A stretch of DNA of 64,000 nucleotides from Bacteroidales bacterium (GTDB taxonomy: Bacteria > Bacteroidota > Bacteroidia > Bacteroidales > UBA12077): contig JAQIBH010000040.1 of the NCBI GenBank assembly GCA_027859205.1, positions 1,825 to 65,824 of the forward strand. The letters run 5' to 3'. This document shows positions 758 through 18,824 of the stretch, piece after piece. The position numbers and the translations under genes were made by a program. Numbering within the stretch: the stretch's first letter is position 1; each line of letters begins with the position of its first letter. The notes beneath the pieces are model-generated. The model ran no database searches and had not been told where the DNA came from. It saw nothing but the letters and a program-made list of their open reading frames with translations.

Positions 758-759
758 AA

Positions 760-1120: not shown

Positions 1121-2959
1121 TCAATGACTTAGATCAATTACGGAAACAATATTCGAAAAATCAGCATTACAATAAATCAAATACGATTTTTTAAGATTTG
1201 AAAGGATTTCTTTTAACTTTTCCTCAGATAACTCAATAAAAACTTTTTTCAAATCTGAATACAATTCATTAAACGTACAAATGTTATTTTCAAGAGCTTT
1301 TAGAACATATCCGTATTCAGGTTCACCAAACACGATATTTTCTATTTCAATATCATTGCAATATTCTGTATAATAATATATGCTATTGTTTTCCTGAATT
1401 TTATAAGAAAACGTATTGTTTTTATAATGATTTTCAATTTCAATTAGTTTATCCCATTCCTTAACGTTATCCGGTACATTCTTCTCATATCTGAATAAAT
1501 GAAAGCGATCTTCAGTATTTGAGAAATAATCCGGCAACAGGGAAGTGATAACATCATAATCATATTTTTTTCTGTCATCATCTGACATTGAGGAATAATA
1601 TTTTGTCATTGACGATAACACCAAATTCACATATATATGGGAAAATGAAACAATACTATTATTATAAAAGAATCTTAAAAAATGTAGATTATTTATGCAT
1701 TCTTGCACATCATTTTCAGTTTCTTCAGGCACATGTTTTATTACATTGGCGGTAGGAGTGATTCCATTTTTAATAGAATGTTTTACTATAAATAGATTAT
1801 CAGAAAAGCTATTACTTTTATTCATTTTCTTTAATAATGAATCAGAAAGCGCATCATAACCGATAAAGATATTTTTAAAGCCTGCAATGGCCATTTTTTT
1901 CATGATTTTTGCATTGAATAGATCATTTGGTATAATCTCGGCCCAGAATATATAATCTTCTTCATTTTTGAATTTTAAGTCAATTATTAAGTCAAGTAAT
2001 TTCTCGAAATGCTCGAAGCTACCGAAAGTATCGCTATCCACAAATGAAAATGTTGTAATCCCATAATACTTTGAGATATGATCTATCTCATTCACAATAC
2101 ATTCAGGACTCCTGACTCGCAATTTGTATCCTTGATTAAAATCACAAAATTTGCATTTTCTCCAATGACAAGAGCGAATTGTATTTATGGGAATACTTAT
2201 TTGATCACTCTTTTTAGGATAAGGGTAGTTATTTATATAATCATCATAGTCAGGGAAAATATAATTCTTAAAATCTAAATAATCACTTTTATTTGTTGAC
2301 GATTGCAAAATCTCTTCTGCATCACGATACATCAAGCGAGGAACTACTTTAAAATCAGAAGTGTCTTTCTTTATTTGATTAGATAATTCTAATAATGGGT
2401 ATTCGCCTTCGCCCCAGGTAACAAAATCAAAATAAGGACAAACTTTAATTGCCTCTTTTGCAGCTTTCTCACTACCAAAACCGCCAACAATAATTTTTAC
2501 TTCAGGTGCAATTTTCTTTATTTCTTCGGCTAAAATTATGCCCGGAATCCATTGATTATACTTAGCACTAATTCCAAAAAGCAAAATCTCAGTAAAATCA
2601 ATTTTTGTAATCTCACGATGAATTATTTCGAAAATTTCTTCTTTTTTAGTTTGTAAAAACTCCAAATAATACTTCGAGTTAATAGTTTTATAAGTAGAAT
2701 CTAATTTCTGAAGTAATGAAATGATTCGATTGTTGCCTTTTGCATTATTATCACGATCATTTAGGATTGAGAGAAAAGGAAGAATTCTAATTTCGGTATC
2801 TTCAGTTTTCACATAATCAGACATTAAGGATAATAAAAAATTCCAATATTTTATTTCTGTTTCAACACCATTGCTTACCATAAACTTTTTAAGGATGGAT
2901 AGTGAAATAGAAGGACTATATATATCAGCAGGAGGTAGGCAATTTAGAAGAATCTTCAT
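1121..2959 (-). CDS. B12-binding-domain radical SAM protein (class B rSAM-like), 612 aa
   Basis: The N-terminal ~200 aa have a Rossmann-like B12-binding-domain pattern (ILLFGISAKYNQWIPG...KIIVGGFG). The central cysteine cluster is IRSCHWRKCKFCDF, followed by TIM-barrel-like rSAM core strings (FSFVDSDTFG, IFIGYDALSD). There is a C-terminal ~90-aa extension. Confidence 0.8.
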   Translation of the reverse strand: MKILLNCLPPADIYSPSISLSILKKFMVSNGVETEIKYWNFLLSLMSDYVKTEDTEIRILPFLSILNDRDNNAKGNNRIISLLQKLDSTYKTINSKYYLEFLQTKKEEIFEIIHREITKIDFTEILLFGISAKYNQWIPGIILAEEIKKIAPEVKIIVGGFGSEKAAKEAIKVCPYFDFVTWGEGEYPLLELSNQIKKDTSDFKVVPRLMYRDAEEILQSSTNKSDYLDFKNYIFPDYDDYINNYPYPKKSDQISIPINTIRSCHWRKCKFCDFNQGYKLRVRSPECIVNEIDHISKYYGITTFSFVDSDTFGSFEHFEKLLDLIIDLKFKNEEDYIFWAEIIPNDLFNAKIMKKMAIAGFKNIFIGYDALSDSLLKKMNKSNSFSDNLFIVKHSIKNGITPTANVIKHVPEETENDVQECINNLHFLRFFYNNSIVSFSHIYVNLVLSSMTKYYSSMSDDDRKKYDYDVITSLLPDYFSNTEDRFHLFRYEKNVPDNVKEWDKLIEIENHYKNNTFSYKIQENNSIYYYTEYCNDIEIENIVFGEPEYGYVLKALENNICTFNELYSDLKKVFIELSEEKLKEILSNLKKSYLIYCNADFSNIVSVIDLSH

Positions 2960-3191
2960 CAGCTTTTCATATAAGGTATTTAGCTATTATTTACACAAAA
3001 ATAAGTTAAATATGAGCATAATATGGAAATATTCGGATGTTTTAATATTCTATTTAATACAATAGCTTTAAAGCAATCCTTATTTCGATATTGAATAATT
3101 AGTTCTAAAATAGGTAAACTAAATCAATTGAATATAAATTCATTGTTAAAAGTAACCCAAAATAAAACGCGTACAATATTTAAGTCGTTGA

Positions 3192-3316
3192 CAATCGCAT
3201 ACCTGTCTGCCGACAGGCAGGATTACCCGAATAAGACAACTCGAAGTGCATTCTATTTACCCGTAGGGCGAAATCCCGATAGCTATCGGGATGAAGTAAA
3301 ATGTGTGTGGAGTGAT
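3192..3316 (+). repeat. Non-coding scaffold copy R2 (short variant)
   Basis: AATCGCATA...ATTACCCGAATAAGACAACTCGAAG...TATTTACCCGTAGGGCGAA...GAAGTAAAATGTGTGTGGAGTGA aligns with 10235-10307 / 19497-19569 and with the scaffold end at 10762-10785. It carries two inserted palindromes (3202-3221, 3273-3292). Confidence 0.8.
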
Positions 3317-3608
3317 TATTAAAAATAATTTTAGTTCCAATAAATCATCTTTCTAATTTAAATGTCATTGTAATTTATTAAACAAATAAAGATCATTTTT
3401 TTACTAATCATCCTACGCGCTCATTATCAGCACTTTCTGTATTCTGTTAATATCTTTCTAAAAAAAGCCTAACAATTGGGGGTCACCTTTTTGTATATTA
3501 AGGAATTAATAGGTGAAGGCTTAAGAGTAAATATACAGTCACCAGAATTGTTAGAGGTAATTTGCTAATTAAAGAACATTTTTATTCGAAACTTAAACAT
3601 CGATAATA

Positions 3609-4607
3609 ATGAAACAAAAAGTAATTTTTACTGCCGATGATTATGGTCCTATACCATCTATAAATGATGGCATAATTGAGGCTGTTAAAACTGGATGCAT
3701 TAATTCCGTGGAAGCATTTGCAAACCACGATAATTTTAAAGAATCAATTAATCGTTTAATTAATGAATGCGATTCTGATAGCTTTGAGTTGGGATGCCAC
3801 CTAACTATTACTTCGGGTAAACCTATTACAGGTATGAAAAGTTTATTTGTACGTAACTTATCTTTTAATAAAAAAGGATATTTCCGAAAATACACTGATC
3901 TCAGAAGACCATTTAAACAAGCAAAACGAGATGATCAAGTAAAAATACTTAAAGAGGAGCTTAATGCTCAGATTTATCAATTCGAAAAACATGGTTTTAA
4001 AGATAAACTTACACACCTAAGTTGCCATCATAATGCATTATTCTTTTTCGAAGACTACCTAAATACATATTTTGAGCTAGCTAAAGAAAATAACCTCGCA
4101 GTTCGGACTCCTCACGGGATTCCATTTAAAAGACATAAAAGTTTTATACAAATTGTTGTTGCACTATCGGCAAAAAATCTAAGCCTTAAAGACAGGAACT
4201 ATATGATTCAATTTGCTAAAAAAATACCAGATTTATCTAACATGATTAAAAATCCACCTCCTCCGAATCGTCCTGTTTATCATATAAATGCTAATTATGG
4301 ACCTTTGGGTTTAAAAGTATTAGACGAAGAAGATATTGACGAATATGCAGAAGAAAAACATGCCTTACTTAAAAATTATTTAGAAAAATATGAGAATAAA
4401 GGTATCTCGGAATACGTATTTCATTTAATTACTGATGATTTTGCTAAACATCAGGAGTATAAAAATCAGGCTTTATTTAAAAATTGTAATTATACTGGAA
4501 TAGACAGCACTTATTTTGATAGTAGAATGGCTGAAATACGCTCTTTAATTAAATATAAAAATGTAATTGATAATATGACTGATAAAGTATCCTGGAAACA
4601 AGTATAA
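3609..4607 (+). CDS. YdjC/ChbG-family (carbohydrate deacetylase-like) protein, divergent, 332 aa
   Basis: The N-terminus VIFTADDYGPIPSINDGIIEAVKTGCINSVE fits the YdjC-family DD(F/Y)G opening. Later His-containing strings are LGCHLTITSGKPI and THLSCHHN. An 18-nt gap to the next ORF suggests an operon. Confidence 0.65.
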   Translation: MKQKVIFTADDYGPIPSINDGIIEAVKTGCINSVEAFANHDNFKESINRLINECDSDSFELGCHLTITSGKPITGMKSLFVRNLSFNKKGYFRKYTDLRRPFKQAKRDDQVKILKEELNAQIYQFEKHGFKDKLTHLSCHHNALFFFEDYLNTYFELAKENNLAVRTPHGIPFKRHKSFIQIVVALSAKNLSLKDRNYMIQFAKKIPDLSNMIKNPPPPNRPVYHINANYGPLGLKVLDEEDIDEYAEEKHALLKNYLEKYENKGISEYVFHLITDDFAKHQEYKNQALFKNCNYTGIDSTYFDSRMAEIRSLIKYKNVIDNMTDKVSWKQV

Positions 4608-4624
4608 AATTAAAACTTAATATT

Positions 4625-6193
4625 ATGCCACAATATTACGATGCACATTGTCATATCTTTAATAAGAATATTTTTCTGAGACAGGTGGTTGAAATTGCAG
4701 TAAGCTTGCACGAACTCACTAAATTAGCTGAAAAGAAAAAAAAGTTAAAACTTATTAAAAAAACAGTTAAAAATATTGATTTAGGACTAGATACATTTAT
4801 GAATAATAATATTAGTAATGTATTTGACGACTTAAATAATGCATATAATGGTAAGTTTATTATTACTCCTTTACCTATAGACTTGACCTATACCGATGAT
4901 AATGACGGAAGTACCAGAGAAGATTTAAGATATGTTAATCAACTCAAATGGTTTTTAATAAAGATTTTGGCTATTATTGGATTAATAAAAGGATTTACGA
5001 ATAAAGAAATTGATGAAATTCTAAATAAAATAAAGGTCAATATTAAGAAATTAATTAAATCGCTTAAAAATGATCTTGAGCATAATGAATGGCTTATTGA
5101 TAGTAATAATTACAATGATCAGATAAAAAATCATTTGCAGCTTGCAAAAGCAAATCCAAAAGTTAAACCTTTTCTATCTCTTGATCCTCGAAGACAACGC
5201 CGTGATAATAAGAACCTAATGGATCTGGTAGAAAAGTATTTCAAAGAAGATCCTGGATACTTTGTCGGTATTAAATTATATGCCCCTGTTGGATTTTCTC
5301 CAACAGATCCAATTTTAATGGGAGATGATGAGCATAATCAAAGTATTTATAAATATTGCCAAGAAAAGAAAATCCCAATTACAATACACAATTCAAATTC
5401 TGGGTTTTCGTGTTTTTCTAAAGAACTAAGAGTTACCGGATTAATTCGTAACGATAGAGGAAACTTAGTGGCATGCGATAATAAGAAGTATAAGTTTAAA
5501 AAGAAATTCTTTAAAGTTGTAGGTATTGGCGAGGCTATTGAAGAGCGTGCCAGAGTTTTAAATCATCCATCATTATGGGAAAAAGTATTGGAAAAATTTC
5601 CAAATTTAATACTGAATTTTGGCCACTTTGGAGGAAGTAGCCAAATTATGGAAAGGGTTAATTATAGTTTCCCTAATAATTTTAAAGATCTGGATACTTT
5701 TGATGTGACTAAAATGGCAAAAAAAGTAAAAGACAAAGCGAAAAGAGGAAAAGTCTGGGATCTTTTTATGGAAATAGATGGAGTTTATAATATTAAATCT
5801 AATCTTTCAAAAAAAGATCGAAAAGAAACTTGGGAAATATTATACAAAGCAGGAGTAATTGATAACTGGAGTCAGGCAATATTTGATATTATTATTAAAT
5901 ATCCTAATGCATACACCGATTTGTCTTGTTTTAGGGCATTTGATAAAAAAGGGGATACCTCATTTATTAATAATTTAACAAAATTTAAAAAGAACTTTTT
6001 TGATCCTTTAGATGCAAAACACAAAGAAAAGTTTTTATATGGTACCGATTTCTTTTTAATTCTGTTATCGGGTATTGAACCAAAAAATTATGTTAAAACC
6101 TTTGACAAAGTTTTTAATACAGATGAAAGCAAAGATTTTGATTTAATTGCAAGTAAGAATCCTGAAAAGTTTCTTGGAATCAGTAATAATTAG
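4625..6193 (+). CDS. Amidohydrolase-superfamily (TIM-barrel metal-dependent hydrolase, TatD/amidohydrolase_2-like) protein, 522 aa
   Basis: YYDAHCHIF (HxH on strand 1), ITIHNSN, NFGHFGG and LYGTDFF (strand-8 Asp) appear in the order expected for the amidohydrolase metal site. A long Lys-rich insertion follows the first motif. Confidence 0.55.
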   Translation: MPQYYDAHCHIFNKNIFLRQVVEIAVSLHELTKLAEKKKKLKLIKKTVKNIDLGLDTFMNNNISNVFDDLNNAYNGKFIITPLPIDLTYTDDNDGSTREDLRYVNQLKWFLIKILAIIGLIKGFTNKEIDEILNKIKVNIKKLIKSLKNDLEHNEWLIDSNNYNDQIKNHLQLAKANPKVKPFLSLDPRRQRRDNKNLMDLVEKYFKEDPGYFVGIKLYAPVGFSPTDPILMGDDEHNQSIYKYCQEKKIPITIHNSNSGFSCFSKELRVTGLIRNDRGNLVACDNKKYKFKKKFFKVVGIGEAIEERARVLNHPSLWEKVLEKFPNLILNFGHFGGSSQIMERVNYSFPNNFKDLDTFDVTKMAKKVKDKAKRGKVWDLFMEIDGVYNIKSNLSKKDRKETWEILYKAGVIDNWSQAIFDIIIKYPNAYTDLSCFRAFDKKGDTSFINNLTKFKKNFFDPLDAKHKEKFLYGTDFFLILLSGIEPKNYVKTFDKVFNTDESKDFDLIASKNPEKFLGISNN

Positions 6194-6248
6194 AACAAAA
6201 TTCCACTACGTTCAATAATCCAATTAATGCAATTCGAAGGCAAGCGGT

Positions 6249-6545
6249 ATGTATACACAATTTACTAGCATTTGTCCTATAACTTTAGCGCACTTAGCGA
6301 AGCGATTTCACGAACAAAGTGAGTAACAAAGCGTTCTCACGACCCAAGGGAGTAATGTCCTGCATGGAGCCTGTCCCGAACTCCTGCCTGCCGGCAGGCA
6401 AGGTGATTCGGGATTAACATAGCTTCGCTCAATAATTAATTGCTTTTTTTTAGGGTAAGAAAATAAAAATTCTACTTTCTCGCACTACCCAAACGAAATA
6501 CTTTTTTTACGTAATGAAATGGAGTGAAATGGGTGTGGAGTGATA
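6249..6545 (+). repeat. Non-coding scaffold copy R3
   Basis: TACACAATTTACTAGCATTTGTCCTATAA...TAACATAGCTTCGCTCAATAATTAATTGC...AGGGTAAGAAAATAAAAATTCTAC...GAAATGGGTGTGGAGTGA aligns with 10503-10785. A ~130-nt block of nested hairpin elements is inserted at 6281-6414. Confidence 0.85.
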
Positions 6546-6802
6546 ACTACGTTAGTGAAAATTATAAAGAAATCACTAACTTAAAGCAGTTTATAATAAA
6601 TTCACTAAAATGAAAGTACAAATAGGGAAGTATAGTTTATTGTAAAAACTAATAATAAGAAAGTTGCTTAATTTATTTGAATCAAAAATGTAGGAAATAC
6701 TAGCGATTATAACAATAAACTGTAAATATTAGTAAATTCATTTGTTTTTATTGATTATTAATTGCAATATTTGCATAAATTGTGTAAATAATTCAAATAA
6801 AA

Positions 6803-8059
6803 ATGTTAATAGAAATTTCAATAACTAATTATAGGTCGTTAAAAGAAAAATCAACATTAAGCTTAATAGCTGATGGGTACGATTCTAAATCAGAGAACAT
6901 AAATCTATTTGAATATGCCAATGATAAAAAGCTTAGACTTCATAATAGTGTTCTTATTTTTGGAGCAAATGGATCTGGTAAATCAAATATTGTTCGTGGA
7001 TTATGGACTCTAACGTGGTTATTAAATAACCCTAGACACGAAGGAGAACCTATAAATTTCTTTGATCCTTTTAAATTTAATGTAAATACAAAAAATCAAC
7101 CTAATAAATTTGAGATTAAATTCTTAGACTCAGATGCGATTCCATATTTGTATGTAGTTTCTTTTAATAGTGAGAAGATAACAGAAGAAAAGCTAACATA
7201 TTGGCCAAATAATAGAGAAACAGAAGTCTTTACTAGAGAAATCTTGGACGAAAATAGTAAGGTGCATGTAATTAAAATAGGAAAAGCTGCACAAGAAAAG
7301 AATAGTGAAGAAAACATCTACAAAAACAATTTCGCGATTTCGCACTTTTCTTCTCTAACTCCAAATGAAGTGATTCTAAATGCCTTCAATTCACTAAAGC
7401 GAATTCGCATTTGTAATAGCCTTAACATCGGTCATAGAATTAAAATATCTGATGATTTTGGTGAATTACTAATTAATAATGAATGGTTTAATAGAAGAGT
7501 CAATGCGCTTATCCGATATGCTGATTTAAATATAAATCTTGTGCGAGCTGAAAAGAAAGTTGACTCAGATGATCGAAAAGGAATTGACAAATTTAAGTTT
7601 TATACTCAACATTATTTATATAATGGAGATCAACGAACAGATATTTCTCTTGATATTCCTTTGAAAGAAGAGTCTGAAGGTTCACAAACAATTATAAGTC
7701 TTGGAAGTGAAATCATACACGCTTTGGATGAAGGAGGAGCGCTAATCGTTGACGAATTCGAAACTAGTCTTCATCCGAAACTTAGCAAAGCTTTGATACG
7801 TATTTTTCAAAGTAAAAAATTAAACCCCAAAAAGGCTCAATTAATTTTTACTACACACGATACTAATTTAATGGATCATCATATTTTTAGACGTGATCAA
7901 ATCTGGTTTACGGAAAAAAATAGTAGGGGTGAAACTGAATTATTTTCGATGATTGATTTTGATAATTTAAGAGAAGGTCATGTTTTCGAAAAATGGTATT
8001 TGTCAGGCAAATTTGGAGCATTACCACAATTAGAAACTATCGAAAAAGCGTTTGGATGA
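6803..8059 (+). CDS. AAA-family ATPase (AAA_21/ABC-like), AbiLi / OLD-ATPase-like
   Basis: Walker A FGANGSGKSN near the N-terminus; Walker B-like LIVDEFETSLHP followed by IFTTHD (ABC-type H-loop region). It is translationally coupled to an RloB-like gene. Confidence 0.8.
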   Translation: MLIEISITNYRSLKEKSTLSLIADGYDSKSENINLFEYANDKKLRLHNSVLIFGANGSGKSNIVRGLWTLTWLLNNPRHEGEPINFFDPFKFNVNTKNQPNKFEIKFLDSDAIPYLYVVSFNSEKITEEKLTYWPNNRETEVFTREILDENSKVHVIKIGKAAQEKNSEENIYKNNFAISHFSSLTPNEVILNAFNSLKRIRICNSLNIGHRIKISDDFGELLINNEWFNRRVNALIRYADLNINLVRAEKKVDSDDRKGIDKFKFYTQHYLYNGDQRTDISLDIPLKEESEGSQTIISLGSEIIHALDEGGALIVDEFETSLHPKLSKALIRIFQSKKLNPKKAQLIFTTHDTNLMDHHIFRRDQIWFTEKNSRGETELFSMIDFDNLREGHVFEKWYLSGKFGALPQLETIEKAFG

Positions 8060-9177
8060 GCAGAATCACAGGATCAAAAAAGACAGCTCATACTGTATTA
8101 ATTGTCTGTGAAGGAAAAAATACTGAACCTTCATATTTTGAGTCCTTAGAATCCTATATTCGTGATAAATATTCTGATCATTATCCAAACGGAATAACTT
8201 TTGATATTTTCCCAATCGGTCCCGAAACTCAGGAAGCTATAAAGCAAGAGAGTGAACTGTTTTCAAGAAAAAAAACTACTAGAGTAGTTAAAAATGCTGA
8301 ACAAATAATTAATGAAGACATAGAAGAAGAATATAGCCCAGCGCCAATACGATGGGTTCGATATGCTCAGAAACAATCTATAAATGTTGGGTATAACCAA
8401 GTTTGGAGTGTTTTTGACTATGACAATCGAAGTGCCTCACACATAGAAAAGTCTTTTAATCAAGCCGAAACGGCAACGACTGACGGTATTGATAAAGTAC
8501 AAATAGCTTATAGCTCATATTCATTTGAATATTGGATACTATTACATTATGAACTTTATGAGAAGTATTTGGGTTTTTCTGAATGTAAGGATGAAAAAAG
8601 AGAACCTATTGCATGCGGAACTAAAGCTCATTCTGATGATTGCAATGGAAATAAATGTTTAACTGGTTATTTATATCTTAATGATCCTAAGGTTGGGTCT
8701 ATTTTAAAAACTGAGGAATCAACTTTTCCATACATAAAAGAAAATATGAGGAAAGCATGTATTAGGGCTAAGTATATGAGAACATTGCATTCAAAAGAGA
8801 CTACTAACAAATGGGAGATGAAACCTGTAACTACTATGGATGAAATGTTAGAATCATTGATCCCAGGATTAAATAATATTACATGGCATTTAGCAACAAA
8901 CGAAATTGTTTTTACTAATTGGAAAATTAGTTGGTCTCGTAATGAAAGCTTACTAACAATAAAACTTATAACTAATGGGAGAGAAACAGTTTTAATCAAT
9001 GCCTATAATATCTGTCTTTACGATGAAAAATTAGATCACGATGGAGTTAATCAAAGAATATTGAAACAAGGACAAGGAGAGTATGACATTGTTGAAATAG
9101 ATATTAGCAAATTAGACATTATACCTTGTTATATTTCTATAAAAAAAGGTGTAGATACACATTTTTCAAAATTGTAA
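8056..9177 (+). CDS. RloB-like (Toprim-like) protein, AbiLii-like
   Basis: The likely start is the ATG at 8056, overlapping the upstream stop (ATGA). VLIVCEGKNTEPSYFESL is the characteristic RloB N-terminal motif. Later WSVFDYD... and a Cys-rich stretch. The track ORF 7993.. begins upstream inside the ATPase gene. Confidence 0.75.
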   Translation: MSRITGSKKTAHTVLIVCEGKNTEPSYFESLESYIRDKYSDHYPNGITFDIFPIGPETQEAIKQESELFSRKKTTRVVKNAEQIINEDIEEEYSPAPIRWVRYAQKQSINVGYNQVWSVFDYDNRSASHIEKSFNQAETATTDGIDKVQIAYSSYSFEYWILLHYELYEKYLGFSECKDEKREPIACGTKAHSDDCNGNKCLTGYLYLNDPKVGSILKTEESTFPYIKENMRKACIRAKYMRTLHSKETTNKWEMKPVTTMDEMLESLIPGLNNITWHLATNEIVFTNWKISWSRNESLLTIKLITNGRETVLINAYNICLYDEKLDHDGVNQRILKQGQGEYDIVEIDISKLDIIPCYISIKKGVDTHFSKL

Positions 9178-9272
9178 AAGCTGCTGATTAAGTTCTAATA
9201 AGACTATATACATTATGTTAAATAGAAAGTCAACTCAAGGCTTTTCTGGCATCTTAATAATTTTGTCTTAAA

Positions 9273-9314
9273 GGGCGAACATCCAGTGGATGTTTGAGCC
9301 AGGTTGTGGGGAGG
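9273..9314 (+). repeat. H1 hairpin element, copy 2
   Basis: GGGCGAACATCC-AGT-GGATGTTTGAGCCAGGTTGTGGGGAGG. Confidence 0.8.
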
Positions 9315-9444
9315 CGAGTAGTTTACGAGCGATAGGTCTGGTAAGCTTTACACGAGTTTTAGGCTTCTAAATTAACCATAAAACACTATATTTTAACTAA
9401 AACGGCTTGTAATGTGTGGAGTAAGCTATTCCGTAGTTTTAGAA

Positions 9445-9486
9445 GGGCAGTTGTCTAGTAGACAACTGAGCCAGGATGTGCGGAAG
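9445..9486 (+). repeat. H1 hairpin element, copy 3
   Basis: GGGCAGTTGTCT-AGT-AGACAACTGAGCCAGGATGTGCGGAAG. Confidence 0.75.
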
Positions 9487-9829
9487 CCTTGATCAGTTAC
9501 TCGCCAAAAATGGCTCGTGAGATCGTTCTCCCGATATTCATCGGGATCACTAAGTTGGTTCTTTTTGTATTAACTAAGCGAAGCGATCTCACGAACACAA
9601 AGTGTGAGTAACCAAAAAGAATGAAAGAACGGCGGTAGGAAAACATGTGTTAAGAAACCATTTGAATTATATAGATCCCGAATGACTTCGTATCGAGATT
9701 AATTATTCCCGTTGGTCATGAGAACGCTACGCTAAGTACAACCAAATTCGTTAGTCACTAAAACTTCCAAACAAATGGTTTCATTAACTTATGTTGTGCG
9801 TTAGCAAAGAATTTTTATTGCGGGTTGGA

Positions 9830-9871
9830 GGGCAAATATCCAGTGGATATTTGAGCCAGCTTGTGGGAAGG
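9830..9871 (+). repeat. H1 hairpin element, copy 4
   Basis: GGGCAAATATCC-AGT-GGATATTTGAGCCAGCTTGTGGGAAGG. Confidence 0.8.
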
Positions 9872-10007
9872 AAATAAATTATTGGAATGCGTTAGCCAGC
9901 GTTGGGCAACGACGAAGTCCTCACGAACACAATTTTTTATAATTAATCCGTGAGTAATTGTTTTTGAAAATTTATTTAGTAATATTTCACTCAAAAGAAA
10001 TTGTAAA

Positions 10008-10050
10008 GGGCAAACATTCAGTGAATGTTTGAGCCAGCATGTGCGAAAGA
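10008..10050 (+). repeat. H1 hairpin element, copy 5
   Basis: GGGCAAACATTC-AGT-GAATGTTTGAGCCAGCATGTGCGAAAG. Confidence 0.8.
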
Positions 10051-10083
10051 AAGGCTGGCAAAGCGGCTATTTAAAATAATGAC

Positions 10084-10175
10084 TAACTGCGAAGCTCTCA
10101 CGAACACATATAAAATTTACAATAGTGAGTAACTGCGAAGCTCTCACGAACACACATAAAATATACAATAGTGAG
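10084..10175 (+). repeat. Tandem duplication (2 x 46 nt) of an H4-type element
   Basis: TAACTGCGAAGCTCTCACGAACACATATAAAATTTACAATAGTGAG is followed immediately by TAACTGCGAAGCTCTCACGAACACACATAAAATATACAATAGTGAG. The 19.4-kb copy reads ...AATGACTA|ATTATAGG... with neither unit. Confidence 0.85.
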
Positions 10176-10387
10176 TAATTATAGGACTAAGCTTAGGAAG
10201 TTTAATTATCGTACGAATAAGTCCCTTAGAATCGCATATTAGAACCATTTCTGTACAATTACCCGAATAAAGTAAACTCGAAGCGAACTATTTACCCGTA
10301 GGGCGAATCCCGATAGCTATCGGAAGGAGACATAGTATAAATTATAGGTACAAATTCGGATCAGGGTTGGCGCAAATTGTTTTAACA

Positions 10388-10430
10388 GGGCAAACAGTTA
10401 GTAACTGTTTGAGCCAGCTTGTGGGAAGGC
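10388..10430 (+). repeat. H1 hairpin element, copy 6
   Basis: Identical to copy 1 except for one base in the 3' tail (GGGAAGGC vs GGGAAGAC). Confidence 0.8.
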
Positions 10431-10965
10431 ATCGATCACGAACATACTTCGACAAGCTCAGTATGACAGTCCGAGATCTTATTTTATATAAAATACTGCG
10501 TATACACAATGCAAAAGTTATCGTTGTGATAGTCCGCAAATTCCTTAACATAATTTCAATACCGATATCGGACAAAAGTCAACGATATCTGAAATTATGT
10601 TAAATACTGCGTATTACAGAATTTGCTAGCATTTGTCCTATAATGTTTGCGTTATGTTAACATAGCTTCGCTCAATAATTAATTACTTTTTTTAGGGTAA
10701 GAAAATAGAAATTCTACTTCCTCGCACTATCCAAGCGAAACACTTTTTTTACGCAATGAAATGAAGTGAAATGGGTGTGGAGTGAATTCTTAGCTAAAAC
10801 ACATTTTGTTTACTTTTAGATTTGCATTTTGAAACATATTTATTACTTTTAATTAATGTTTTTATAAACAGGGAGATATAATGTATGGAACAATGTTCCA
10901 CCTATCCACTAGTTAGGTTTCATGCAAAAAAAACTCCCGAATCATATTTATTCATTTTGTATTTT

Positions 10966-11604
10966 TTAAACTTCTTTATACAAAATCCAACCAAAAACTA
11001 ATGTCAGTATCAGAACATATATGACCAGTACATAAACCCACTTCCCTCCAAATTTTGGGGTATTGATTGATGATAAATTAAATACAGACAGAATCATTAA
11101 GATGACATAAAGAAGTATTGAAAAAGTAAAATGCGTGAAGAAACTTTCGAATAAAAAGACAAAAGCCAGAATCAATACATTATTATCAAGGGCAAGACCT
11201 TTATACGTTTTACTGTCAATAAGACCATGAACATTAAAATAGCTCAGGCGAATGGCACTGGTAGCAATAATTACAAATGCTCCGGGTATATACAAAACAT
11301 TATAATTTCCGTAGCTTAAAAGTATAATTGCAGGTAATATACCAAAGCTTACAATATCTATCAATGAGTCGAGCTGAGCTCCAAATACACCTTGTACTTC
11401 TGTTCTGTTTTTCATTTTTCGTGCTATTATTCCATCGTACCAATCAAATAATACTGCCCATAATACGCCAATTATAGCTGCAGGAAAGTTTCCACCTATG
11501 GCGAAATATATCCCCAATACTGCACTCAATAATCCAAGTAGAGAACAAATGTTTGGTAAATCCTTAGCATAAGTAAGCATGCTTGCTTGTTGTTTGTTGC
11601 TCAT
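10966..11604 (-). CDS. CDP-alcohol phosphatidyltransferase family protein, 212 aa, polytopic membrane protein
   Basis: DWYDGIIARKMKNRTEVQGVFGAQLDSLIDIVS fits the family signature D-x2-D-G-x2-A-R...G-x3-D-x3-D. The rest of the protein is hydrophobic helices. Confidence 0.85.
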   Translation of the reverse strand: MSNKQQASMLTYAKDLPNICSLLGLLSAVLGIYFAIGGNFPAAIIGVLWAVLFDWYDGIIARKMKNRTEVQGVFGAQLDSLIDIVSFGILPAIILLSYGNYNVLYIPGAFVIIATSAIRLSYFNVHGLIDSKTYKGLALDNNVLILAFVFLFESFFTHFTFSILLYVILMILSVFNLSSINTPKFGGKWVYVLVIYVLILTLVFGWILYKEV

Positions 11605-11605
11605 G

Positions 11606-12715
11606 TTATATGTTTTTTGAATACATTACATCCTTTAGCGCTTCAAGGAGCTTTGTGTTTTCCTCATTGGTTCTGCTTGCAATTCGAATATATCGGTCGG
11701 CATCAGGTTGCATTTTACCTGCAGTGTCTTTTATATAAATATTGTACTCAATAAATAAGCGTTTAGTTAGCTCAGGTCCGCTTAGAGCATTATCAGGTAA
11801 GCGACAATAAATATAGTTTGCATCAGGTTTAAAAACCGTCATTCCCTCGATACTACAAAGCATTTTATAGAAAGCATCTCTATCTGTTTTTACCTTTTCG
11901 CAGCTGTCTTCAAATTCCTGTTTATACTGGGGTAAAATTCGCAGAAACTCTTCTGCAAAACCATTAATATTCCATATATGAATACCGTTTCGAACTACTG
12001 CCGCAAATTCTAAGTTTGCCGTTAACATATATCCAATTCTGAGTCCGCATATGCCATAAGCTTTACTCATGCTTTTAAGAATAGCCATGTTCGGATATTT
12101 GTCAATATCTTGTTCCATACATATTTGTTCCTTATTATCGGCAAAATCAAGAAAAGATTCATCAATGATAAGCATGATATTGTGTTTGTCGAGCTTTTGT
12201 GCCAAGCTTATTAAGTCGGCTTTTGGAACCAATATTGATGTTGGATTATTGGGAGTAACCACTACAGCCATATCGGCTCCAACTTTTATTGCCTCGTCAG
12301 CAAATTTATCAACATCGAGCTGAAAAGATGGGAAATCCAACGGAAATTCTATGGCATGACCTTCCGGTGCAGCATTAGCATATTCATTAAATGAGGGTAC
12401 CGGAACAATTATCTTTTTGGCTAAATGTCCTGAAAGAATTTTAATAATTTCAGCAGCACCATTTCCAACAATTATTCTATCGGTTGGTTGCTTTATTATG
12501 TCCCCAATCAATTCGGCCAGTGCATCTTGCGCCATTGGGTAATTCAATACTAAATTATGAATATTGTCTTTTAGGTGTGTAAACACTGCTTTTGGAGGAA
12601 AATAAAGATTATATAAGTAAGCATGGTCAGTAAAATTATGTCGGTAATAACCGCCATGTTGTTTTGATAGGTATTCGTATTTCTCAGCTTGTGTTTTGTA
12701 TTTATTTTCCATCAT
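11606..12715 (-). CDS. PLP-dependent class I/II aminotransferase-fold enzyme (HisC / CobD threonine-phosphate-decarboxylase-like)
   Basis: IVGNGAAEIIKIL, VVTPNNPT, IIDESFLDF and SMSKAYGICGLRIGY (PLP-lysine context) appear in the canonical order. A 1-nt gap separates it from the downstream gene. Confidence 0.8.
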   Translation of the reverse strand: MMENKYKTQAEKYEYLSKQHGGYYRHNFTDHAYLYNLYFPPKAVFTHLKDNIHNLVLNYPMAQDALAELIGDIIKQPTDRIIVGNGAAEIIKILSGHLAKKIIVPVPSFNEYANAAPEGHAIEFPLDFPSFQLDVDKFADEAIKVGADMAVVVTPNNPTSILVPKADLISLAQKLDKHNIMLIIDESFLDFADNKEQICMEQDIDKYPNMAILKSMSKAYGICGLRIGYMLTANLEFAAVVRNGIHIWNINGFAEEFLRILPQYKQEFEDSCEKVKTDRDAFYKMLCSIEGMTVFKPDANYIYCRLPDNALSGPELTKRLFIEYNIYIKDTAGKMQPDADRYIRIASRTNEENTKLLEALKDVMYSKNI

Positions 12716-12800
12716 GTGTTTATTTCTGCCTTTTCATTATTTATTGATTTATAAAAATAAATATTGATTCTTGATACTTAGCTTCTTAATTCTATATAAT

Positions 12801-13598
12801 CTAAGCACTTGCCTTTTCAAGCTTAACATGTTTTTTCCTTTCCATAGGGAAAAGTTTTTCAGCTTCAGCTAAATCATGAATTGTATCAATTTCGTACCAT
12901 GGTTTATGATCAAAAGAAACCGATTCAAGTGTTAAGCTTTTATTATCAATCATATCAGAAAAAACGGTTTCGTAATAGCAGTTAACATTACCTTCTGAGA
13001 TATATTGATTGAGGCTCTTAATAATTGCCCGCCAAGATGATATCGAAAAACTGTAAATATTAACTGTTTTATATCGAATATCAGAGTAGGAATCTGTTGT
13101 TCCTTTTTGAAACTGAGTAACCTGATTCATTTTATTAACCGAAACAGTTGTTCCATTTAGCCAAGGTTGCATTAGAGCAACAGCTATTCTATCAGGGTAA
13201 ATCATTTCGTCAAGCAAGGATGTGTTTAAGACCAAATCGCTTTCAAATAGCACAAAAGGCTCATTAATAATATTACGAGCTATCCAAAGTGAATAAATGT
13301 TATTAGTGGTTCTGTACAACGGACTATGAATGTATTCAATGCTTATATCTCCTAATCTATTGCCAAGATAATCCATAATACAGTCTTTTTCATAACCGGT
13401 AACAATTACAAGACGTTTAAATCCTTGCTTTTTTAAGTTATTTACTAGTCTTTCAAGAATTGATTTTTCATTGACGAGGGTAAGGCATTTTGGAGAGCTC
13501 TTCGTTAAAGGGAAAAGACGACTACCTGTTCCAGCAGCAAGAAGTAATGCTGTGGTAATACGATTGTCACCATAATAATTGTCTGAATTAATATTCAT
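12801..13598 (-). CDS. Nucleotidyltransferase (LicC / phospho-alcohol cytidylyltransferase-like)
   Basis: LLLAAGTGSRLFPLTKSSPKCL (G-x-G-x-R-L NTP-binding loop), NNIYSLW and a C-terminal WYEIDTIHDL resemble LicC-type cytidylyltransferases. Confidence 0.75.
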   Translation of the reverse strand: MNINSDNYYGDNRITTALLLAAGTGSRLFPLTKSSPKCLTLVNEKSILERLVNNLKKQGFKRLVIVTGYEKDCIMDYLGNRLGDISIEYIHSPLYRTTNNIYSLWIARNIINEPFVLFESDLVLNTSLLDEMIYPDRIAVALMQPWLNGTTVSVNKMNQVTQFQKGTTDSYSDIRYKTVNIYSFSISSWRAIIKSLNQYISEGNVNCYYETVFSDMIDNKSLTLESVSFDHKPWYEIDTIHDLAEAEKLFPMERKKHVKLEKASA

Positions 13599-14337
13599 AC
13601 GTTATTTAATTGGTGTCATCAAAAAAGACTTAAACACTCGACTAAAAGCACCTAGGTGTACTAATTTTTAGCACTCTGATGGCTGGACTGGTCACTGATA
13701 ACTCAACTATAAGTATGAAGTCTGCTAATGTGATGATAGATTGCTTTGAAAGCTCATCAACAAAATTGATAGTGAATGATTGATATCATAAGATATGTAA
13801 TCCGTATGCGAAGGTACTCTAAATATCGATAATTACCAATACTTGCTATTCTTCTTATTTTGTGTGACTTAACGAATAGTACAAACAGATAGCAAAAGCC
13901 TACATTTAATGGCATACAGATTAATAATTCGAAAAGCAAAGCACGAAAACCTAACAATGCATCATAAAACATAAGGGTTCTCATGCGTTTTTAAAGGTTT
14001 ATGCAAGAAATTAACTCCGCCAAATCTGTGATTTGACGGGTAAATATAAAATGCTAAATTTGTGTCTAATCGCATATTTGGCTCAGGGTAATTTTGACAA
14101 GTAAACTTTTCAAAATCCCTTACAGTTTCATATGCTCACCGTTAGGTGCAGGCTAGGAGAGATGAAACGTAGTGCTTAATTAATGGTATTTTTGATTTGC
14201 CGACCCGCAAAGAAAAGAAATGCCAACACACAGGCTGAAATTTCAGCTTGTAAAAGAGCCAAGTTTCCGCCATCTCATATCAAAATACAGAAGCTAAAAT
14301 TGTATATTGCGGAGTTGAAAAATGAGAATTATATTAA

Positions 14338-17300
14338 ATGATAGATAAAAATAATTTCAAAGACCTTCTAGTAAATCTTGGATTTTCAATTAAGGGAGAC
14401 ACATATACTAAGAAATTTAAAGAAACGGATGCTTATCTAAAAGTTGACTTCAAAGCTGAAAAGCTCATTTATCCAGAAGACAAAGGTTTTACAATAAACG
14501 AAAAGCAAACATGCAATTTTAAACAAAAGGAAAATTTTGTTGTCTTTGAATGTGTCCACAGACTTTTTGAAAAACAATATAAACCTGAACATATTGAACT
14601 TGAACCAAAATGGAAAGTTGGGCATGGTGCCAGTGGAGGACGTGCGGATATCATGGTAAAAGACAATTCAGGTAAATCACTACTTATTATTGAGTGTAAA
14701 ACAGAAGGGAAGGAATTTAATGATGCATGGAAGAAAACACTAATAAATGGAGGGCAATTGCTTTCTTATGCAAAGCAAGCAGGAAGCACACAATTTGTTT
14801 GCTTGTATGCTTCTGATTATTTGGACAACAAAGTTCTAGCTGATTATCGTCTTATTACACTAAAAGACAATGAAAAACTACTAACAGAGCTAGTAGACAA
14901 AAACCTCTTTCGTTTGATAAAGCAAAAGGCTTAGATGTTGAAGATATTTTCAAAGCGTGGAAAAAAACCTACAGTCAAGATTACGCTACTAAAGGGGTTT
15001 TCGAGAAAGATATTCCAGCTTATGAAATTGGGAAAACGAAATATACTCTAAAGGATTTAAACACAATCAGCAGCAACCATATTCAGGGGAAATACCATGA
15101 ATTTGCCACCATATTAAGACAACACAATGTTTCTGGTCGAGAAAATGCTTTTGATAAACTAGTCAACTTATTTCTATGTAAAATAGTAGACGAAACCAAT
15201 AACCCTGAAGAACTTAAATTCTATTGGAAAGGAATCGCCTATGATGATCAATTCAGTTTAATTGACAGACTTCAAAAACTGTATCAAGATGGTATGCAGC
15301 GTTTTCTGGGAGAAGATGTGGTATATATCAGTGCAGACCAAATAGATAAAGCCTTTGATTTTTTCAAGAACGATCCAGATGCCACAAAAGATACCATTAA
15401 AAAGTATTTCAAAGAATTAAAATTTTTCAACAACAATGATTTTGGATTTATTGATGTCCATAATGAAAAACTGTTCTATCAAAACACAGCTATACTTCTA
15501 AAAATAGTACAAATGCTTCAAGACATTAAATTAAAGTCTGAAGCTGATTCAATAGAAGAGCACCAGTTTTTAGGGGATATGTTCGAAGGTTTCTTAGATC
15601 AAGGAGTGAAACAATCTGAAGGACAGTTTTTCACACCTATGCCAATTGTAAAATTCATTTTAAAATCATTGCCTCTAGATTCCATAATTACTAAAGGTGA
15701 TGAAATCCCTAAGGTGATTGATTTTGCTTGTGGTGCAGGGCATTTCTTAAATGAATATGCTAAAGAAATTAAACCTATAGTTGAAAAAGAGAAGGAAGCG
15801 AAAATTACCGACTTCTATGAAAATATTTTTGGAGTTGAAAAGGAATACCGTTTGTCTAAAGTGGCTAAAGTATCCTCTTTTATGTACGGTCAGGACGATA
15901 TAAACATTGTTTATTCAGATGCCTTGTCTTCTGGTAAAGCTATGGACGACAAAAATATCAAAGACAATAGCTTTTCTGTTTTAGTTGCAAATCCCCCGTA
16001 CAGTGTTAAGGGGTTTTTAGAAACGCTAACTGATATAGAAAGAAAAAAATATGAACTCATTGATACGGTTGAAGAAAAGAGTTATCCAAACAATAATAGT
16101 ATTGAAACCTTCTTTATTGAACGTGCAAAGCAATTACTAAAATCTGGAGGAGTTGCTGCTATTATAGTTCCTACATCAATTCTGACCAAAGGAAAGGCAA
16201 AAAGCACCTCTACGTCCACTAATATTTATGTGGCGACTCGTGAAATCTTGTTAAAATATTTTGACATTGTAGCAATTGCAGAATTTGGTAGTGGGACATT
16301 TGGCAAAACAGGAACAAATACCGTAACACTTTTCATTAGGCGTAAAAAAGAAAACCCTGCTCCAGCAGACCATTTCAAGAATCGGATAAATGCTTGGTTC
16401 AAATATGATAGATCGAAAGACGAATTATTTGAAGATGAGCATTTAATAAAGCAATATTGTAATCATTTGGAATTAGAGTTTAAAGACTATCAAACACTTT
16501 TAGAAGGAAAGCCGAATAAAGCACTATTAGATACAGATGTTTTTAAGGATTATCAAAAAGAATTTGATAAATGGTCGGAAATTAAAAACCTTAAAAAGAA
16601 AACAACCTTTAAGGCTTTAGGTGCAGACAAAAAGGAAGCTGAAATTAAGAAACGCTTTATTGCTTATCTCACTGAAAATGAAAAAGAGAAACTCTATTAT
16701 TTTGTAATAGCTAGTCAGAACCCTCAAAAAGTATTGATTGTTAGGAGTCCATCTAAAACTACTCAAATGAAAGAATTTCTGGGTTACGAGTGGAGTGCTG
16801 CTAAAGGAAATGAGGGGATTAAATATTTGGGTGGTGTTAAACTTGACAAATTAGAGGGCGAGGATGAAGACGAAGGAAATGTGGCATTAGAAGAAGAAGA
16901 TAAGCGTGTGTTGAGTAATATTTTCAATTTGGACAATATCAATACACCTCTTTACGACCCTCATTACAAAAACAATACTGATAAAATCAACCATCTGATT
17001 AATCAGAACTTTAAAGGAAAAAACATTGATATTCCAGAAGAATTAAAAGAACATGTTACACTCTCTAGGCTATCTGATATGTTGGACTTTACTAAAGTTG
17101 ATTTCAACAAATATCTCTCCCTTACTCCAAAATCAACTTTAGCTTTTGAAACTAAATGGGACACTAAAAAACTATCAGATATTGCTCTTGTAAATCCATC
17201 TAAAACAGAAATGAAGAAACTAAATGAAAGTACCAAAGTGTCTTTTGTAGAGATGGCTTCTGTTAGTGATGAGGGATATATCGCAGAAAAAGAAGATAAA

Positions 17301-18323
17301 AAATATCAAGAAATAAAGAAAGGTAGCTACACCTATTTTGCTGAAAACGATATCATTCTTGCCAAGATAACACCTTGCATGGAAAACGGAAAGTGTGCAA
17401 TTGCAACAGATTTAACAAATAAAATTGGTTTTGGTAGTTCAGAGTTTCATGTAATTAGGGTTGGTTCTGAAATATTGAATAGATATTTGTTTGAATTGCT
17501 TAACCAAGAAGAAGTTAGGTTGGTTGCAGAAAAGAATATGACTGGGTCAAGTGGGCATAGACGAGTTCCCAAAGAATTTTATGAGTCTCTAAAAATTCCA
17601 TTTCTACCAATTGAAATTCAGACCGAATTAGTTAATGAATGTAATACGATTAATAAAGAAGCTGAAAAGGCTAAGAAAGTTTTAAATGTTTCAGAAGAAG
17701 AAATAGAAGCTTTATTCCAAAGAGCATTTTCTAAGGCTGATAAAACCTTTAGAATAAATAACACAGATGTGTTCGAGCTATCGATTGGAAAAAGGGTTCT
17801 AAAAAATGAAATCAATCAGGAAGGAATTGGAATTCCTGTTTTTAGTGCTAATGTCTTTGAACCTTTTGGCCACATCAACAAAGAGCTAATTAAAGATTTC
17901 AATCGACCATCCGTACTCTGGGGAATTGATGGAGATTGGATGGTAAATTGCTTGCCTAAAAACATTCCGTTTTATCCAACAGACCATTGTGGAGTTCTCA
18001 GAATTAAAGGAGACACTATTCATCCCAAATATGTAGCTTGGGTATTAGAAAAAGAAGGAGAACGTGTTAGGTTTTCTAGAACAAATCGTGCTTCTATGGA
18101 TAGCATGAGAGGAATAAATGTAAAAGCTCCTTCGCAGGACATACAGATCAAACTCATTAAAGAGGTTGAGAAAAGGGAAAAGAAAATCAACGCATCACAG
18201 GAAATCATTAATGGAATAGCCAAACGAAAAGAAGAAGTGATTAAGTCCTATTTAATGGATAAAGCTTCATCGCCAAAAATAGTTAGGGCAGCAGAACCAA
18301 AAGTAGATTACAAAAAGAAATAA
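14338..18323 (+). pseudogene. Fused R-M-S restriction-modification enzyme (Type IIB/IIG-like: PD-(D/E)xK nuclease + gamma-class N6-adenine methyltransferase + two target-recognition domains), interrupted by a frameshift near 14899-14934
   Basis: ORF 14338..14934 carries GGRADIMVKDNSGKSLLIIECK (D...ExK). Frame 3 is open from 14874 and encodes clearly coding sequence (DVEDIFKAWKKTY...KYHEFATILRQHNVSGRENAFDKLVNLFLCKIVDE) upstream of the first ATG at 15294. Methyltransferase motifs are VIDFACGAGHFL and VLVANPPYSVKGF. Two HsdS-like TRDs lie in the C-terminal ~400 aa. Confidence 0.75.
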
Positions 18324-18357
18324 TGACTCCAGCCACAATGAAGAAGATAAGTAGTTC

Positions 18358-18795
18358 ATGAATAAACTAACTAAATACGCCCAACACTTCGTTAAACTCG
18401 AATTAATGAAAGCTCGCTTAGAGGTTTTTCAAAATGAAAGTGCAAATAATGGAGTTGAATTTATTGTAAAGACAAACTCGGGGAAATATCATGAGTTGTT
18501 TTTACAAACTATTAATTTAGAAAAGGATAGGAGCGTTAAAATTATTAAACAAGAAATAGGGGAGCCCAAAGACACACTTTGGGTTGCATTAGTACTATTC
18601 ATGAAGTAAATGGAGCCTGTTTTATATTTAATTCCATCTAAAACACTTGCAAAACCAGACGATTATATTTTCATCGAAAATGATCAAAGTGATAGGTTCA
18701 AACACTTGTCTAATTGGGAGATAAAAGTGTTTACTAAAGCAATACCACAACTAAGCAAATACGCATTTGCTAATATGATTAAAGAAATTTCATAG
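18358..18795 (+). pseudogene. Small hypothetical gene split by an in-frame TAA (83 + 61 codons, same frame)
   Basis: ORFs 18358..18609 and 18610..18795 are in the same frame and separated only by the TAA at 18607-18609 (...VALVLFMK*MEPVLYLIPS...). Confidence 0.45.
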
Positions 18796-18824
18796 AAATA
18801 CTTGCTTAAATCAAGGTCAAAATA

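Follow-up and report, generated by a model that had tools for sequence, protein, structure and literature searches.

Two long non-coding repeats beside dif in a Bacteroidales bacterium look like scaffolds of a tandem array of probably Xer-dependent gene modules

Introduction

Some integrative elements carry no integrase and use the recombinases XerC and XerD of their host instead. In Vibrio cholerae, such integrative mobile elements exploiting Xer (IMEX), namely TLCphi, CTXphi/RS1 and VGJphi, are stacked in tandem at dif, which is regenerated on one side of the element while a defective hybrid site is left on the other. The locus described here appears to share these features. It lies in a 64-kb stretch of DNA from a Bacteroidales bacterium (assembly GCA_027859205.1, contig JAQIBH010000040.1, positions 1,825 to 65,824), which is called the window below and to whose positions all coordinates refer. 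A preliminary description of this DNA had drawn attention to two long non-coding repeats, at 9178-10965 and 18796-19806, and had proposed that they are a large structured RNA locus, a recombination substrate or a landing pad that accumulates small mobile hairpins. The two repeats look like the scaffolds of the two dif-proximal units, that is, copies of a conserved spacer between gene modules, most of which serve anti-phage defence. Because the repeats are spacer copies between modules beside dif, the locus looks like an Xer-driven landing platform and not like a giant RNA gene. The region is read here, with rather more confidence than doubt, as a tandem array of integrase-less, Xer-dependent integrative modules of the IMEX kind at dif.

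Most known elements exploiting Xer are phages and islands of Vibrio and Neisseria or reside on Acinetobacter plasmids. The pdif modules of the latter are discrete modules, including those for toxin-antitoxin systems and resistance genes, whose XerC/XerD-type boundary sites are shared by neighbours. In the plasmid site cer, the core has an 8-bp spacer, and in cer and psi the reaction is controlled by accessory DNA that extends for about 200 bp beside the XerC arm.

In CTXphi, two inverted dif-like sites fold into a hairpin of about 150 nt that serves as the attachment site attP (PMC5357621). Within the Bacteroidales, the microvirus proviruses BMV1-7 lack an integrase and are flanked by dif-like direct repeats of about 13 bp (Krupovic and Forterre 2011, PMC3091885), and some of them have an additional dif-like sequence near one end (PMC3091885). 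A search of the literature on IMEX or dif-linked defence islands in Bacteroidota returned nothing relevant beyond this work on microvirus proviruses.

The two repeats and the chromosomal dif site

Neither of the two stretches holds a credible open reading frame (ORF), as had been reported; the longest encodes 78 aa and starts with TTG. The collinearity of 9210-10660 with 18825-19754 in direct orientation is equally sound, with 883 matches and 77 mismatches (92.0% identity) in a global alignment of the shared backbone, and a self-repeat search returns the same collinear segments at 90-94% identity. The upstream copy had been said to carry about ten extra blocks. Some 12 blocks of 15-111 nt were found, and the earlier counts and coordinates are right within a few bases. 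On the right, the repeat continues beyond its earlier limit, since 10657-10785 resembles 6414-6543 at 93% identity. The end motif seen at the borders of the repeats was recovered as the 13-mer TTATGTTAAATA, exact at 9213, 10595, 18828 and 19740.

The last of these copies belongs to 19723-19750 (+), which is, judged by its sequence, the chromosomal dif, the XerC/XerD dimer-resolution site. It consists of the XerC arm TTGTCCTATAA (19723-33), the 6-nt spacer TTTATA (19734-39) and the XerD arm TTATGTTAAAT (19740-50). All 28 of its 28 positions are identical to the published dif prediction for Robiginitalea biformata, and 1-4 nt separate it from those for Dyadobacter, Cytophaga, Gramella and Flavobacterium (Kono et al. 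2011, supplementary file 2, PMC3025954). Owing to this match, the motif TTATGTTAAATAG of the preliminary description can be read as the XerD-binding arm of dif plus two bases. An arm scan of the window finds this single full site with a 6-nt spacer, and it is intergenic. The cumulative GC skew tops out in the 16-20 kb bin, within the limits of a 64-kb window and of a measure that also tracks gene orientation.

The position of this site is conserved. In the related loci compared (labelled L with a number; L066 is the same as L125), dif lies directly downstream of a TPR-gyrA gene pair in 16 of the 18 informative cases, including L130 and L132, which have no scaffold. It also lies beside TPR-gyrA in the Cyclobacteriaceae genome L149, which was reached via the 145-aa gene described below. 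Where TPR relatives were compared together with their flanks, GTCCTATAATTWATATTATGTTAAATAG just downstream of the TPR gene is kept even at 32% protein identity, with nothing else aligning. In L116 (3927, scaffold-sense coordinates), there is beside the TPR terminator only an inverted XerC arm, TTATAGGACAA, without an XerD arm, an arrangement that may reflect an inversion or a deletion at dif.

Organization of the array

The downstream repeat had been likened to one unit of a tandem array. This holds in spirit, as an array exists; what repeats in it is the alternation of cargo modules and scaffolds. The scaffold is present in five copies or remnants (759-1080, 3180-3318, 6236-6545, 9196-10800 and 18811-19750), which are separated by four unrelated cargo modules, and its decay rises with the distance from dif. 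Read from the left, the order is a peptidase gene, a truncated scaffold, a radical SAM gene, a remnant, the YdjC and amidohydrolase genes, a second remnant with a post-site region, and the AbiLi/AbiLii genes. These are followed by the XerD half-site at 9213, the upstream scaffold, site B with its post-site region, and a module of lipid, restriction-modification (R-M) and 145-aa genes. The dif end consists of the XerD half-site at 18828, the downstream scaffold, dif, TPR and gyrA. The sites are direct repeats, with an XerC arm at 1013, 6272, 10633 and 19723 and with the XerD arm only at 9213 and 18828.

The two full scaffolds, both on the + strand, define the borders of the unit. The downstream scaffold (18811-19722) opens with the XerD half-site 18828-18838, which has no recognisable XerC arm, and has dif at its end. 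The upstream scaffold (9196-10632) has its XerD half-site at 9213-9223, near the start, and its homology to the downstream copy begins from ACATTATG; the 3' end of the scaffold reads …TTTGTCCTATAA. The homology of the two copies extends from two bases before the XerD half-site to one base past the XerC arm, so the borders of the repeat are the borders of Xer sites. Of the earlier proposals, the recombination substrate is thereby supported, and in a more specific form: what had been seen as an end motif is the XerD arm of the chromosomal dif, and dif-type sites bound the copies.

The site that ends the upstream scaffold, site B (10633-10662, +), is a hybrid of a perfect XerC arm, an 8-nt spacer TGTTTGCG and a variant XerD arm TTATGTTAACA. 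Sites of this class, with an 8-9-nt spacer of the form TGNNNTGCR, are also present in L127, L136, L139-143 and L150/151, that is, in at least five genomes; the XerC arm is followed by TGTTTGCG, TGTTCTGCA, TGTCCTGCG, TGGATTGCA or TGTTTTGCA, and then by TTATGTTAA. Behind site B, a post-site region (10657-10785, +) opens the next cargo module. It is 93% identical to 6414-6543 and 91% identical to the equivalent place in L127, and its start is recognisable in L139.

The older-looking copies, also on the + strand, retain parts of the same plan. The truncated scaffold at 759-1080 keeps the 3' third only, with a hairpin element of the type called A below (879-921) and an XerC arm with the spacer TGTTTGCG (1013-1035), and a hairpin insertion splits its XerD arm. 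The remnant at 3180-3318 joins a piece of the most conserved block, which contains a small hairpin insertion, to the end of a post-site region. The remnant at 6236-6545 holds the last 35 nt of the scaffold and a perfect XerC arm (6272-6282), in which about 125 nt of hairpin insertions replace the spacer and the XerD arm, and then a post-site region.

Gene content of the modules

Among the ORFs of at least 60 aa in 1-19800, searches with Pfam, NCBIfam and PADLOC found no integrase, recombinase or transposase. The first cargo module encodes a B12-binding radical SAM protein (1121-2959, -). The second, within 1121-6193, encodes a YdjC-like deacetylase (3609-4607) and an amidohydrolase-like protein (4625-6193). 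The third (6803-9177, +) is an AbiLi/AbiLii abortive-infection pair (PADLOC 7.8e-84 and 2e-19; Pfam AAA_21 and RloB). The fourth (10966-18323) combines minus-strand lipid-headgroup genes for a CDP-alcohol phosphatidyltransferase, an aminotransferase and a nucleotidyltransferase with a type IIG R-M gene on the + strand. The latter is split into 14338-14934 (198 aa, profile positions 1-190) and 15294-18323 (1009 aa, profile positions 314-1270), and because the 359 nt between the two ORFs are out of frame, it is probably a pseudogene or frameshifted. Between the lipid and R-M genes lie 0.74 kb (13599-14337) with only a 75-aa and a 52-aa ORF, and without an Rfam hit or similarity to the scaffold.

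The two ORFs that precede the downstream scaffold are a single 145-aa gene (18358-18795, +), broken by an in-frame TAA at 18607-18609 where its relatives have GAA. The module nearest dif therefore has both its 145-aa and its R-M gene damaged. The 145-aa gene is intact in L115, L119 and L127, where it is 87-97% identical and directly adjoins the scaffold. Its family comprises 262 clusters at 65-92% identity, is patchy in distribution and has no Pfam annotation in any cluster. The predicted fold is that of a PD-(D/E)xK nuclease: the AlphaFold2 model has a predicted local distance difference test (pLDDT) score of 78, and its best PDB matches are archaeal Hjc Holliday-junction resolvases and other PD-(D/E)xK nucleases, at weak E-values of about 1e-3 and template-modelling (TM) scores of 0.46-0.6. 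No confident catalytic motif could be assigned from the alignment. The sole plasmid match, to an Acinetobacter phage-plasmid, has 25% identity and an uninformative context.

This gene is also a guide to similar arrangements elsewhere. In 7 further independent genomes (Vicingaceae, Vicingus, Cyclobacteriaceae, and marine and other metagenome-assembled genomes), it is followed by an XerD half-site, by 0.6-1.6 kb without genes, and then by a full dif or a site B. The genes upstream of it serve defence and encode nSTAND, type I/ISP and MmeI R-M, Bub, pAgo with SIR2, M78 with DUF4411, and reverse transcriptase with DUF2779.

Relatives of the scaffold

Full scaffolds with 80-88% nucleotide identity occupy the same place in L119, L127, L125, L115 and L122, and the 5' part is present in L109. 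The cargo is different in every genome compared while the frame stays, as seen when the fourth module is set against L127, L119, L109, L066 and L150/151. An example is the cargo beside the scaffold, which consists of DUF4411 with M78, and RDD, in L127, of PIN and AAA_33 in L119, of SIR2 and AAA_21 with DUF4276 in L109, and of a sugar transferase and a Mur ligase in L066. The layout of two scaffolds with site B is found in L127 and L150/151 as well. A 21-base scaffold pattern had no match in a metagenome collection, which evidently lacks this clade.

Two observations concern the contigs themselves. Those of the metagenome-assembled genomes L115, L118, L121 and L126 end 0.1-1.5 kb past TPR, inside or at the scaffold, and such breaks just past TPR-gyrA are probably caused in this clade by the repeated scaffold. 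L109 (JAUVLT010000077.1), a contig of 3971 nt with the SIR2 and AAA_21-DUF4276 genes and the 5' half of the scaffold, is binned as Mycoplasmatota and is almost certainly a mis-binned Bacteroidales fragment.

The interior of the scaffold

Xer-like sites in inverted orientation occur here only inside the scaffold. A complete inverted site lies at 19423-19451, reading TAGTCCTATAA TTAGTCA TTATTTTAAAT on the minus strand, and recurs in L119, L122, L125, L127, L129, L135 and L139. In its upstream counterpart (10069-10189), a tandem 46-nt insertion splits the spacer exactly. A second inverted dif-like stretch, GGAGACATAGTATTAATTATAGTTGACAAAT (19578-19608, +; upstream copy 10326-10355), is kept in L119, L122, L125, L127 and L135. 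When 19405-19760 is folded as single-stranded DNA, 19578-19608 is predicted to pair with dif in a hairpin of about 170 nt (-40.9 kcal/mol, z = -3.4). This hairpin encloses a smaller one at 19635-19694 (+; upstream copy 10545-10603), the foot of which is an XerD-arm duplex (TTAACATAA.../...TTATGTTAA). Across 8 genomes, 9 of the 22 pairs of the smaller hairpin show compensatory double changes. In view of the inverted dif-like sites and the covarying hairpin with its XerD-arm foot, the scaffold may either function in folded, single-stranded form or control Xer as accessory DNA.

Hairpin-sized insertions

The blocks that distinguish the two scaffolds fall into several kinds. The main one, type A, is an element of 40-45 nt composed of A-GGGC, an 8-bp stem with an AGT loop, and GAGCCAG-NN-TGTG-YG. 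It makes up five of the extra blocks of the upstream scaffold (9272-9314, 9444-9486, 9829-9871, 10007-10049 and 10387-10429) and one block in 759-1080 (879-921). All six copies in the window are on the + strand, where none is expected by chance. The strict pattern occurs at 107 places in GTDB representative genomes, nearly all of them of Bacteroidota (Bacteroidales, Flavobacteriales, Sphingobacteriaceae, Cyclobacteriaceae and Chitinophaga), with up to about 10 per genome. Around 90% of these places are intergenic, in both orientations relative to genes. The proposed landing pad for small mobile hairpins is also supported by the finding that the main inserted block belongs to a hairpin family with more than 100 copies in other Bacteroidota genomes, to which two shorter dispersed palindromes are added. 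These palindromes, TCCCGATAGCTATCGGGA and CCTGCC…GGCAGG, are found in unrelated loci.

A covariance model of type A finds 105 copies in 742 kb, with 97.5% of stem positions paired, double changes in 9 of 11 pairs, and a covariation of 0.58 vs 0.16 in shuffles. The core has 18 invariant non-palindromic positions that are conserved across orders. Rfam families overlapping type A were found neither in the window nor at 18 type-A loci, and the idea of a known self-cleaving ribozyme or k-turn was dropped because of this and of an unfit bulge geometry. Type A is best regarded as a conserved motif in its own right. In two cases, L124 (1716-1760, -) and L061 (3710-3752, +), a divergent type A has GGGC changed to GGAC together with GAGCC changed to GGGCC, a pattern that resembles an exchange of G.A for A.G across the foot of the stem.

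Comparison of filled and empty sites shows that type A replaces 5-13 A-rich nt without a target-site duplication; at two sites, it takes the place of one arm of a small AT hairpin. The upstream scaffold has its type-A sites 2 and 3 and a 57-nt block in common with L125, and the downstream scaffold has empty states in common with L119 and L127. As insertions and empty states are shared with different genomes, the two copies are of partly different ancestry.

The second kind, the CACGAAC-type or type-B blocks of 46 nt, forms a tandem pair (CTGCGAAGCTCTCACGAACACA...GTGAGTAA) at 10087-10176 (+), with single copies at 9578-9612 and 9911-9957, and is confined to this scaffold lineage. Type B was rejected as a partner of type A, as the two are not associated in 107 other loci. 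In a genome scan, TTGGCGCAAATTGTNTTAACA had chance hits only, one of them inside a cbiM-like gene.

Related sequences occur in other settings. The RNase P RNA (bacterial class A, full length, 199 bits) at 52557-52898 (-) is adjoined at 52975 by a scaffold-type palindrome, TCCCGATAATTATCGGGA. The metagenome-assembled genome JAQSCW01 (L025, L026, L037, L038, L054, L070, L076 and L100) has a repeat of about 330 nt with terminal inverted repeats GG(A)TCAATCGGAA in at least 8 near-identical copies, which carries type A near its 5' end. Elsewhere in the window, a self-comparison detects an internal direct repeat at 45524-46072 (+), with a period of about 252 nt and 68% identity over 306 nt, which probably reflects a domain repeated within a coding sequence.

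Type A resembles the repetitive extragenic palindromic (REP) sequences, bacterial interspersed mosaic elements (BIME) and miniature inverted-repeat transposable elements (MITE), since it and the short palindromes are multi-copy, mostly intergenic, present in either orientation and nested in larger repeats. REPs are usually species-specific. Type A is unlike all these families in its 18 invariant non-palindromic positions across orders and its covarying stem, with no GTAG box apparent.

A model for the growth of the array

The unit of the array can be described as a frame with two parts. The left part consists of an XerC arm, an 8-9-nt spacer and an XerD-like arm, followed by the post-site region of about 130 nt and the cargo genes. 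The right part often begins with the 145-aa gene and continues with an XerD half-site, the non-coding scaffold of 0.6-1.5 kb and the next XerC arm. In the proposed mechanism, a circular module would bear an attP composed of an XerC arm, an 8-9-nt spacer and an XerD-like arm. The host XerC and XerD would recombine this attP with dif, with the crossover at the boundary of XerC arm and spacer. As a result, the hybrid site B would stay on the left, where its long spacer should make it a poor substrate for FtsK-activated excision, and a perfect dif would be reformed on the right beside TPR-gyrA, open to dimer resolution and to the next arrival. The array would thus grow from its dif end, and the older units would be pushed outward and decay there. 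More speculatively, the scaffold could act as a folded single strand like the attP of CTXphi, and the Hjc-like protein could handle the junction intermediate.

Several observations weigh against an Xer-dependent module array. No excised circle, free replicon or empty site in a close relative was seen; dif without a scaffold was found only in the distant relatives L130 and L132, and no isogenic empty site was found. The scans with Pfam, NCBIfam and PADLOC detect no Rep, relaxase or phage and virion genes in the modules, the phage and plasmid collections contain no relatives of the scaffold, and IMG/VR contains none of the 145-aa gene. Across orders, the conservation of the scaffold and the 145-aa gene is about that of GyrA (65-75% vs 70-76% at the amino-acid level), so a long vertical residence beside dif is possible. 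The left half-sites have no XerC arm, and classical Xer recombination requires both arms. Recombination between an 8-9-nt and a 6-nt spacer would be a reaction for which this comparison offers no tested precedent. Finally, the two copies are 92% alike vs about 82% to any other genome, which fits gene conversion or local duplication equally.

A wider version of this model would see in the Bacteroidota an integron-like platform for gene capture at the terminus, where Xer, the folded scaffold and an Hjc-like nuclease resolving a one-strand-exchange intermediate insert and stack defence modules at dif, with the type-A hairpin as a functional nucleic-acid motif not known before. This version is offered tentatively, as conceivable but on the whole doubtful.

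Alternative explanations

The conservation of the scaffold would also be expected if it were a resident region that serves the host, either as a dif accessory region comparable to cer and psi or through XerD-only sites acting on SMC, possibly together with the 145-aa protein. Under this explanation, the scaffold was copied by homology with incoming islands, and the modules are ordinary islands that Xer does not move. The position of the scaffold next to the XerC arm of dif corresponds to that of plasmid accessory sequences, a single copy stands beside dif in many lineages, and extra XerD half-sites are frequent in it; the conservation of scaffold and 145-aa gene at the level of GyrA points the same way. 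However, L130 and L132 have dif without the scaffold, the 145-aa gene is stop-broken here, and its family of 262 clusters is patchy. Moreover, the boundaries of the repeat are not arbitrary and fall exactly at Xer-site borders, and the long-spacer site B recurs at module borders in several genomes. This resident accessory region is rather unlikely, and of the three alternatives it survives best.

The second alternative is that the scaffold encodes a large, structured non-coding RNA and is next to dif by chance, the hairpin differences being variable peripheral stems, as in other large bacterial RNAs. Whole hairpins are indeed exchanged at fixed positions, such as GTTTTAG...CTAAAAC vs GTCCGCC...GGCGGAC in L109. 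In single-sequence folds compared with shuffles, the + strand is better than the - strand by 30 kcal/mol, at moderate z-scores (-3.8 vs -2.6), and in the stems of type A, G.U mismatches outnumber A.C in the + sense (17 vs 8). Yet, the wobble pairs, which would be G.T in DNA, and the strand asymmetry suit folded single-stranded DNA equally. The conserved block also contains, at 9258 and 18874, a perfect TAATTTTG, which we take to be the -7 box of Bacteroidetes promoters, but in DNA this rich in AT, chance alone would produce such a box about once per kb. With RNAalifold, the 5' 600 nt of six genomes give 17 pairs and zero compensatory changes; covariation is confined to local hairpins, and the covarying features consist of Xer arms. 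The proposed Infernal/Rfam check brought only RNase P RNA to the gathering score in the window. Rfam has nothing meaningful at E <= 10 in 9100-11000, where two hits are at chance level, and the window gives no gathering-score match to GOLLD, ROOL, OLE, HEARO or a group I/II intron. The large structured RNA locus of the preliminary description is thus unsupported, and an RNA gene is improbable.

The least probable alternative is that a segment of the terminus region was simply duplicated, by unequal crossing-over or by replication slippage, and that the copies then diverged, the Xer motifs at their borders being incidental. This would account for the mutual similarity of the two copies but not for five copies between four unrelated cargo sets, for insertions and empty states shared with different foreign genomes (L125 vs L119 and L127), or for the layout of two scaffolds with site B that occurs independently in L150/151 and L127.

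Comparison with known systems

The modules considered here as Xer-dependent resemble the Vibrio IMEX in their general plan and differ from them in several respects. They lack phage genes, Rep and any known Xer activation factor, and their cargo consists of defence and metabolic genes. Their left half-sites are defective in the XerC arm and not in the XerD arm, the spacer of the hybrid site measures 8-9 nt, each unit has a scaffold of 0.6-1.5 kb, and the host belongs to the Bacteroidota. The predicted pairing of 19578-19608 with dif around a covarying hairpin is similar to the attP of CTXphi; with the spacer of site B, the centre of this structure would be unpaired. In contrast to elements with a single-stranded DNA life cycle of the CTXphi type, the modules are without Rep, relaxase or virion genes.

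In the pdif modules, the orientation of sites alternates between modules as it does here inside the scaffold. The full sites that bound pdif modules are inversely oriented and lie on plasmids, whereas the array is chromosomal and at the true dif, with bounding sites in direct repeat and a long scaffold between modules; the scaffold has no match in the plasmid collection. Compared with the accessory DNA of cer and psi, the scaffold is 3-7 times longer and has further Xer-like sites and hairpins. The proviruses BMV1-7 share with the modules the host order, the lack of an integrase and the dif-like direct-repeat flanks; they are 4.6-6.3 kb long and carry capsid, pilot and Rep genes (PMC3091885), none of which are present here.

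Stacks of Xer-exploiting elements at dif are therefore a known kind, and the variant found here appears to be undescribed in the literature searched. It is distinguished by its non-viral defence and accessory modules, by a long, conserved scaffold that contains inverted Xer sites and a covarying hairpin, by the long-spacer hybrid site, by the nuclease-fold gene, and by its occurrence in several orders of Bacteroidota.

Significance

If stacked integrase-less arrays are present at dif in many Bacteroidota, the location of a part of the variable defence repertoire of the phylum would be explained. Such islands would then have a simple search signature, namely dif, the long-spacer site B and the scaffold. 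The same arrays would explain the frequent breaks just past TPR-gyrA in metagenome assemblies of this clade. They would also provide a new system in which the diversion of Xer from dimer resolution to gene acquisition can be studied.

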